Positions 61,076 through 62,529 of a DNA stretch of 64,000 bases are shown piece by piece (within the stretch, counting starts at the first letter, position 1; every line of letters starts with the position of its first letter). Source of the DNA: Escherichia coli (GTDB lineage Bacteria > Pseudomonadota > Gammaproteobacteria > Enterobacterales > Enterobacteriaceae); the NCBI RefSeq assembly GCF_013315695.1, contig NZ_CP054353.1. The stretch is one strand, 5' to 3'. The notes beneath the pieces are model-generated. The model saw only the letters and a program-made list of their open reading frames with translations, searched no databases and was not told the origin of the DNA. A program made the translations under genes and the position numbers.

Positions 61076-61628
61076 TTACGATTTACAGTTGAGTTGCGGC
61101 GTTTCCGCCCCGTAGTCATTGATAGTTCGGTACGTTACGCTGCTGTTTTTGGCACCCATTGGCAGAGAGAATTGGTATTTATCAAAGGGGGAAATCATTT
61201 GATTTTTAACTACTTTTCCACCTATTTTCAGGTCTGTCAGGGTAATGAAATAAGGTGTTGGGTTACTGACCGTAACCATGTCAGCTGACGAAGTGCAACG
61301 CAGTTTCGCCGGAGCCTCGGCTAAGGGATACGCTAAACCTTTTGGTCGCCAGAAAAGTTTGATGACGCTTTGTGTGGCAATCTTCAGGGTATTGCCTTCT
61401 TCCCGCTTCGTTGTTGAAGGGACTGCCCGTACGCTGGTGAAGAAAAGAGTTTCTCTGTCTTTCGCCAACGGCGCGCCAATGTACATAATGCGTAGCAGGT
61501 TCTCGTTTGCCGGATTCAGCACAAATAGCGGTGGTGTAATAATAAAGTCCGCTGACTTTTTATTATCTGGTGTCATCACCCATGACTGAATCAGATAAGG
61601 AACATCCGGACTGGTGTTACGTACACCC
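61076..61628 (-). pseudogene. elfD: Fimbrial chaperone ElfD, 5'-truncated by IS1
   Basis: C-terminal about 184 codons of a PapD-like chaperone abut the IS1 end at 61629; no signal peptide or native start remains. Confidence 0.8.
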
Positions 61629-61643
61629 GGTAATGACTCCAAC

Positions 61644-62147
61644 TTATTGATAGTGTTTTATGTTCAGATAATGCCCGATGACTTTGTCATGCAGCTCCAC
61701 CGATTTTGAGAACGACAGCGACTTCCGTCCCAGCCGTGCCAGGTGCTGCCTCAGATTCAGGTTATGCCGCTCAATTCGCTGCGTATATCGCTTGCTGATT
61801 ACGTGCAGCTTTCCCTTCAGGCGGGATTCATACAGCGGCCAGCCATCCGTCATCCATATCACCACGTCAAAGGGTGACAGCAGGCTCATAAGACGCCCCA
61901 GCGTCGCCATAGTGCGTTCACCGAATACGTGCGCAACAACCGTCTTCCGGAGCCTGTCATACGCGTAAAACAGCCAGCGCTGGCGCGATTTAGCCCCGAC
62001 ATAGCCCCACTGTTCGTCCATTTCCGCGCAGACGATGACGTCACTGCCCGGCTGTATGCGCGAGGTTACCGACTGCGGCCTGAGTTTTTTAAGTGACGTA
62101 AAATCGTGTTGAGGCCAACGCCCATAATGCGGGCTGTTGCCCGGCAT
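61644..62147 (-). CDS. insB: IS1 InsB (transposase C-terminal part, made as InsAB' by -1 frameshift)
   Basis: 167-aa [30 protein letters not shown]... Confidence 0.9.
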
Positions 62148-62341
62148 CCAACGCCATTCATGGCCATATCAATGATTTTCTGGTGCGTACCGGGTTGAGA
62201 AGCGGTGTAAGTGAACTGCAGTTGCCATGTTTTACGGCAGTGAGAGCAGAGATAGCGCTGATGTCCGGCGGTGCTTTTGCCGTTACGCACCACCCCGTCA
62301 GTAGCTGAACAGGAGGGACAGCTGATAGAAACAGAAGCCAC
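62066..62341 (-). CDS. insA: IS1 InsA repressor/DNA-binding protein
   Basis: 91-aa [43 protein letters not shown]... Confidence 0.9.
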
Positions 62342-62529
62342 TGGAGCACCTCAAAAACACCATCATACACTAAATCAGTAAGTTGGCAGCATCACCAGCC
62401 CTTTCTTTAGCTTATTTTCAGAAAAAGATACACAAAATTTATATTTGGCATTCTCTTGTCTCTCCGACAGACTGACCGAATTGTTATCAATGTTAACAAA
62501 ACAAGAACAATTGGTTATAAGGAGAGAGT

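Follow-up and report, generated by a model that had tools for sequence, protein, structure and literature searches.

A complete IS1 without a target-site duplication between elfD and ssuE of Escherichia coli: a probable case of insertion followed by adjacent deletion

How did a complete IS1 come to lie between elfD and ssuE of Escherichia coli without the 8-9 bp direct repeat that accompanies a simple insertion, and with about 1 kb of the locus missing? The question arose in a stretch of E. coli DNA of 64 kb (hereafter the window), for which a first-pass annotation had proposed an IS1-associated adjacent deletion that removed the start of the elf fimbrial operon. We examined the element, its two junctions and the missing DNA, and compared the locus with that of related and more distant strains.

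The complete 768-bp IS1 described in the first-pass annotation was found at the same position, with its inverted repeats and both transposase frames. Its parts are as follows.

61629..62396, minus strand: complete IS1 (IS1A type), 768 bp, with the transposase in the same direction as the elf genes
61629..61651: IS1 IRR, 23 nt, one of an inverted-repeat pair with 78% complementarity; it adjoins the elfD remnant at the ancestral, unaltered junction
62374..62396: IS1 IRL, 23 nt, the other member of the inverted-repeat pair and the end from which the deletion begins
62066..62341, minus strand: insA, 91 aa (NCBIfam IS1/IS1595 zinc-binding domain; IS1 transposase profile positions 1-81)
61644..62147, minus strand: insB' frame, 167 aa (NCBIfam NF033558 IS1 transposase, 145.6 bits against a cutoff of 100)

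The 23-nt imperfect inverted repeats lie exactly at both ends of the element, and these repeats and its length are those of IS1. Profile NF033558 matched both the insA and the insB' frame, each of them an open minus-strand frame, and the overlap of the two contains the A6C frameshift motif TTAAAAAACTC (62082-62092), as in a two-frame transposase. A match to IS1's own promoter pattern (CTGCCA-16-TATGAT, 62389..62362, minus strand) is located within the IRL region. Within the 64-kb window this is the only IS1 copy (61629-62396). It is identical at 768 of 768 positions to the IS1 carried in elfD by E. coli MSB1_4I, a copy annotated by PGAP as an IS1A-family transposase with a programmed frameshift. 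To judge from its intact reading frames, the window's element should still produce transposase.

The 9 bp outside the element do not match, being CGTACACCC on the left (61620-61628) and AGCCCTTTC on the right (62397-62405). A repeat search across both junctions recovered no direct repeat flanking IS1, including any hidden or shifted duplication of 8-9 bp, in agreement with the mismatch noted at first. Both junctions were also where they had first been placed, one inside elfD at codon 51 (tblastn) and the other 133 bp upstream of ssuE, the start codon of which is at 62530. The sequence on either side of the element is made up of the following features.

58451..61051, minus strand: elfC usher, intact ORF (NCBIfam NF011740, 1749 bits, full length), now without its native operon promoter
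61076..61628, minus strand: elfD remnant, nt 150-702, residues 51-233 (tblastn with ElfD, 100% identity over 51-233)
61076..61642, minus strand: IS1::elfD fusion ORF, 188 aa, with a TTG start within the IRR, reading MESLPG followed by ElfD 51-233
61620..61628: CGTACACCC, surviving copy of the ancestral 9-bp target-site duplication (the 9-mer is on both sides of IS1 in sister genomes)
62397..62405: AGCCCTTTC, deletion endpoint and putative new target site (alignment to MSB1_4I, exactly 999 bp absent between the IRL and this 9-mer)
62397..62529, plus strand: what is left of the spacer before ssuE (133 bp), its upstream 222 bp being lost
62530..63105, plus strand: ssuE, intact (NCBIfam NF007859, 352 bits against a cutoff of 225)

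What remains of elfD is its 3′ 553 nt, and its alignment to profiles of fimbrial chaperones begins only at about position 47-51, with scores below the curated cutoffs. Both the signal peptide and roughly the first 24 residues of the mature chaperone are missing from it. The missing residues 1-50 presumably include the N-terminal strand with the conserved subunit-anchoring arginine of PapD-type chaperones. Since the fusion protein that now opens the reading frame has no signal peptide, it is not expected to be a functional chaperone. The fusion ORF has been called by gene callers in many public assemblies and is a handy exact-match marker of the clade carrying IS1::elfD. The genes remaining behind IS1 are elfD′, elfC, elfG, ycbU, ycbV and ycbF. 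An Rfam scan of the window yielded no match at the IS1/elf/ssuE locus. Elsewhere in the window it matched 6958-7036, 17719-18141, 28686-28770 and 55494-55567 (naRNA4, a cspA-type thermoregulator, tRNA-Ser and the pyrD leader), all of them expected for the region.

The extent of the missing DNA depends on the genome with which the window is compared. Against K-12 the absent segment is 997,646-998,638, or 993 bp, close to the 1 kb first estimated and covering, as had been stated, elfA, the elf promoter region and the elfD signal peptide. Against the closest relative without the IS it is 990 bp. Against the insertion allele of MSB1_4I, the window is shorter by exactly 999 bp, beginning directly after the IRL. 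These consist of the second copy of the duplication (9 bp), elfD nt 1-149 (149 bp), the elfA-elfD spacer (79 bp), elfA (540 bp) and part of the 355-bp ssuE-elfA spacer, namely the 222 bp nearest elfA. Shimada et al. (PMC3946193) predicted two promoters in this spacer, TTTAAA-17-TATTAT toward elfA and ATGACA-17-AATAAT toward ssuE, and both motifs were placed by eye in the deleted part. Of the components of a functional Elf (ycbQRST) chaperone-usher operon, the window thus lacks the predicted elfA promoter, ElfA and a full-length, exported ElfD. We looked for elfA and the other missing DNA across the whole 64-kb window and did not find them. A relocated elfA was rejected, the only candidates in the window being ycbU/ycbV-type paralogues with 26% identity.

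The window belongs to a lineage in which earlier states of the locus have survived. The 23.6 kb to the left of IS1 are identical to those of MSB1_4I, a rectal swab isolate from Australia, and near-identical in AF3, two further isolates and MS 21-1. In the next group, SMS-3-5 among them, identity is 99.5%. K-12 reaches only 93-95.5% identity with the window sequence, so the background is neither K-12 nor B. The first-pass annotation had suggested looking for the same junction in B-type strains. C43(DE3), a BL21 derivative, matched only the IS1 half of the junction query. We therefore rejected a B-strain allele, C43(DE3) being without the junction and the window falling in the lineage of MSB1_4I, AF3 and MS 21-1. 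The elf cluster of E. coli B is, moreover, given as intact in the literature (PMC3032704).

Identity between the window and MSB1_4I is 100% over 30391-62396 and 62397-64000, so that the flanks agree over the last 33.6 kb of the window. Their sole structural difference is the 999 bases that follow directly after the IRL in MSB1_4I. Four SNPs separate them, at 19174, 20159, 22419 and 27509, all in the first 31 kb. All are transitions, and they cluster within 8.3 kb in the hya-app region. When AF3 was taken as outgroup, two were private to MSB1_4I (appA R203H, appB P315L) and two to the window (appC N80, synonymous; hyaA D251N). With two private SNPs on each side, the window strain and MSB1_4I are sisters and not one isolate.

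MSB1_4I carries this IS1 at the identical base of elfD, there as a simple insertion bordered on both sides by CGTACACCC, and the 5′ piece of elfD, elfA and the full spacer are kept. The same simple insertion with the CGTACACCC duplication was found in two assemblies with long contigs, GCA_900448625.1 and GCA_000461175.1. The left (elfD) junction of the window is identical to that of all three and has not changed. Public assemblies contain the exact 188-aa fusion protein in 96 blocks. AF3 and MS 21-1, the nearest relatives without the IS, have an empty site with elfA and elfD intact. The compared sequences give a clear order, namely an empty site, then insertion with duplication, then loss of 999 bp beside the IRL. 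The window's IS1 lacks the duplication that the identical copy in its sisters possesses, and the missing duplication is the signature of the later deletion and no argument against the identity of the element. The adjacent deletion first proposed thus gains support from sister genomes, which retain the ancestral simple insertion and its duplication at the very same base. The locus is a clean natural case of insertion followed by adjacent deletion, each of its three states (empty site, simple insertion, deletion) being preserved in sister genomes. Searches of 5,426 complete RefSeq E. coli genomes, JGI metagenome contigs and GTDB species representatives did not recover the exact deletion junction, and the deletion allele is therefore rare.

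The history that we consider probable has two stages, the second being an adjacent deletion by one-step intramolecular replicative transposition. In the first stage, IS1 inserted into codons 50-53 of elfD in an ancestor of the lineage, duplicating CGTACACCC. In the second, confined to the window's own line, the IS1 transposase would have joined the ends of the element to a new target on the same molecule, AGCCCTTTC, which lies within the AT-rich ssuE-elfA spacer, 133 bp before ssuE. In the deletion orientation, such an intramolecular replicative transposition would loop out the intervening 999 bp, from the IRL to the target, together with a second copy of IS1, and these would then be lost. Left in the chromosome would be one IS1, still joined to elfD as before, and a new junction with no duplication.

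Adjacent deletions start precisely at the terminus of the element and end at a target site, IS1/Tn9 being a named example (PMC9330008). In the window the deletion starts at the base after the terminal IRL base of a resident, intact IS1. No base at either boundary is common to the deleted and the retained sequence, so the start of the deletion is unambiguous. It ends at a target that IS1 has used elsewhere. A simple IS1 insertion in strain EC20 duplicated GCCCTTTCT, 1 bp from the endpoint AGCCCTTTC of the window, and the endpoint lies in a trough of the spacer with a GC content of 22-32%, where seven IS1 junctions occur within 75 bp. In lines from long-term evolution, 14 of 14 IS-associated deletions followed the same course of earlier insertion and later adjacent deletion (PMC11708052), and IS1-adjacent deletions have been observed arising in clinical E. 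coli (PMC10569738). The alignments show directly what the ancestral allele was, exactly how far the deletion extends, and that it starts at the terminal base of IS1 and ends at a target used by IS1; the single-step action of the transposase is what we infer from them.

That last step has a competitor. The adjacent-deletion structure given in the first-pass annotation stands, but sequence alone cannot separate a one-step deletion by transposase from recombination between two IS1 copies. A second IS1 could have inserted in the same orientation at AGCCCTTTC, and RecA-dependent recombination between the 768-bp direct repeats could then have removed one IS1 and the 999 bp. We regard this as possible, though the less likely course. 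Its product is identical to the window, so that the outcome is the same as that of the one-step deletion, and IS copies lacking a target-site duplication have often been explained in this way (PMC11708052). The spacer receives many simple IS1 insertions (EC20, 1 bp away, 22F46, ETEC1716 and Res13-Sevr), and more were inferred from match spans in the complete-genome search. The lineage also appears to be rich in IS1, with at least 40 matching places on the MSB1_4I chromosome for a junction query of which half is IS1; a high IS1 load would make a second nearby insertion plausible. Time would have sufficed, given the two private SNPs of the window strain and of MSB1_4I in 64 kb. However, no intermediate with two IS1 copies was found in the 16 alleles examined (described below) or in the contigs carrying the IS1::elfD marker; a second IS1 with its duplication would show as an IRR joined to ...GATATATAAAGCCCTTTC. 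Moreover, the simple insertion nearest to the endpoint, that of EC20, has the opposite orientation, and two events are needed where one suffices.

Poor assembly is a very improbable explanation. The assembler might have collapsed the repeat, the true genome having either an IS1 copy on each side of the 999-bp segment or just the simple insertion, and the junction does rest on one sequence, with no second instance in the complete genomes, JGI contigs and GTDB representatives searched. However, the window is continuous for 64 kb through IS1 in an apparently IS1-rich lineage. Short-read contigs of the clade break inside IS1, and the continuity of the window therefore suggests that long reads, alone or in a hybrid assembly, were used. 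The junction is also exact to the base at the terminus of IS1 and falls at a real IS1 target site, and seven other lineages have analogous real alleles. An independent single event, in which IS1 entered an elf locus without an IS and deleted 990 bp simultaneously, meeting the elfD base used in MSB1_4I by chance, is the least credible of all, for although the 5′ region of elfD has been hit repeatedly by IS1 (HCP30S3_I2 4 bp away, EC590 and WEM25 nearby), the window and MSB1_4I share insertion base, orientation and IS1 sequence, the MSB1_4I flanks match without a difference over 33.6 kb, and the insertion allele is widespread in the clade while the relatives without the IS are slightly more distant.

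IS1 has visited this locus on other occasions. We collected 16 IS1 alleles at the ssuE-elf locus; they were found by similarity to the window's own junctions and are a biased sample. Eight were simple insertions with a duplication, and eight had no duplication and lacked 349-6,497 bp. The latter are the window, EC09, 582, HCP4S3_I4, WP5-S17-ESBL-10, 3359, ET82 and VE-T9, and in all eight elfA was wholly or partly removed. Like the window, the other seven thus carry IS1 without a duplication and have lost elfA in whole or in part, most of them with one junction 81-154 bp upstream of ssuE. Their junctions differ from those of the window and are independent. In several, the fixed junction is apparently in the spacer and the deletion extends into the elf operon, whereas in the window the fixed junction is in elfD.

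IS1 junctions 81-154 bp upstream of ssuE were found in EC20, 582, HCP4S3_I4, ET82, EC09, VE-T9 and 22F46. Junctions in this interval before the ssuE start (62397-62480 of the window and the matching spacers) occur in at least eight independent lineages. Match spans in the complete-genome search suggested further insertion positions in the spacer, and IS1 seems to have a regional hot spot here that takes in all 355 bp of the AT-rich ssuE-elfA spacer. In ETEC1716, the IS1 inserted near elfA is a divergent variant in the same spacer, 93.5% identical to the window's copy. Its flanks are CTTTAAATG on the left and TTTAAATGA on the right, which overlap by 8 bp on the reference and imply an 8-bp rather than a 9-bp duplication.

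Loss of elf DNA was not confined to strains with IS1. Less than 80% of the ssuE-elfA-elfD segment was present in 1,422 of 5,415 complete genomes (about a quarter), and among the matches listed, the lowest-ranked genomes were covered only at the ssuE end. In the two such genomes examined, IHE3034 (locus 3114-3351) and FDAARGOS_1287, the whole elfADCG-ycbUVF operon is absent and ssuE abuts pyrD. In these operon-less strains, similarity to K-12 ends 62 bp upstream of the ssuE ATG. Elf genes beside ssuE have been lost in B2-type strains, of which IHE3034 is an example, as they have in the window. Unlike the window, they lack the entire operon and have no IS at the site. Further independent decay of elf was seen in elfC, which is annotated as frameshifted or with an internal stop in MS 21-1 (locus 3803-5001), EC590 and HCP4S3_I4.

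The elf operon has been reported as cryptic and silenced by H-NS in K-12, and SlyA binds the ssuE-elfA spacer (PMC5797941). It is conceivable, though we think it unlikely, that IS1 lands preferentially in the AT-rich spacer, to which H-NS and SlyA bind, and in the start of the elf operon, and that the recurrent loss of ElfA is perhaps selected or retunes ssuEADCB by removing upstream silencing DNA. The window allele would then be a convergent instance and not a neutral accident.

With the promoter region, the ElfA major subunit and the ElfD export signal gone, the Elf laminin-binding fimbriae are not expected to be made. The first-pass annotation had the losses right (the promoter, the major pilin and the chaperone N-terminus), but the loss of function predates the deletion. 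The operon had already been interrupted by the IS1 insertion in elfD, and the deletion is therefore further decay and not the inactivating event. We considered a hybrid outward promoter reading from the IRL into ssuE and rejected it, as a scan found none and, by eye, the IRL offers TTGGCA without an acceptable -10 hexamer 16-18 bp downstream. Natural alleles with IS1 as near as 81 bp upstream of ssuE occur (EC09). The locus is best annotated as an IS1-disrupted, partly deleted elf operon, with elfD a pseudogene and elfA absent, and the event has little significance beyond annotation. The window allele also adds to the evidence that the ssuE-elfA spacer is hit repeatedly by IS1.

Among known systems, the closest likeness is to the adjacent (replicative) deletions mediated by IS1, including the classical gal deletions of Reif and Saedler (1975) and the work of Turlan and Chandler (1995, EMBO J 14:5410), both as cited in PMC9330008. 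As in those deletions, the window's deletion starts exactly at the terminus of the element, keeps IS1 and its other junction, leaves no duplication and has its distal end at a normal IS1 target. There is no difference in kind, the window being a natural chromosomal case with the ancestral allele surviving in its sisters. The IS1-adjacent nfsB deletions of clinical E. coli (PMC10569738) likewise lie directly beside a resident IS1. However, they span 11-66 kb and were selected by nitrofurantoin, whereas that of the window removed 1 kb of an already broken operon and has no sign of selection. In the long-term evolution experiment, the adjacent deletions of IS150 (PMC11708052) followed the same order, a duplicating insertion and then a deletion that abuts the IS and removes the duplication. 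IS150 belongs to another family (IS3) and its deletions were followed over time in the laboratory, whereas the order of events in the window was reconstructed from sister genomes. The event at the elf locus is an ordinary one, of a textbook kind.
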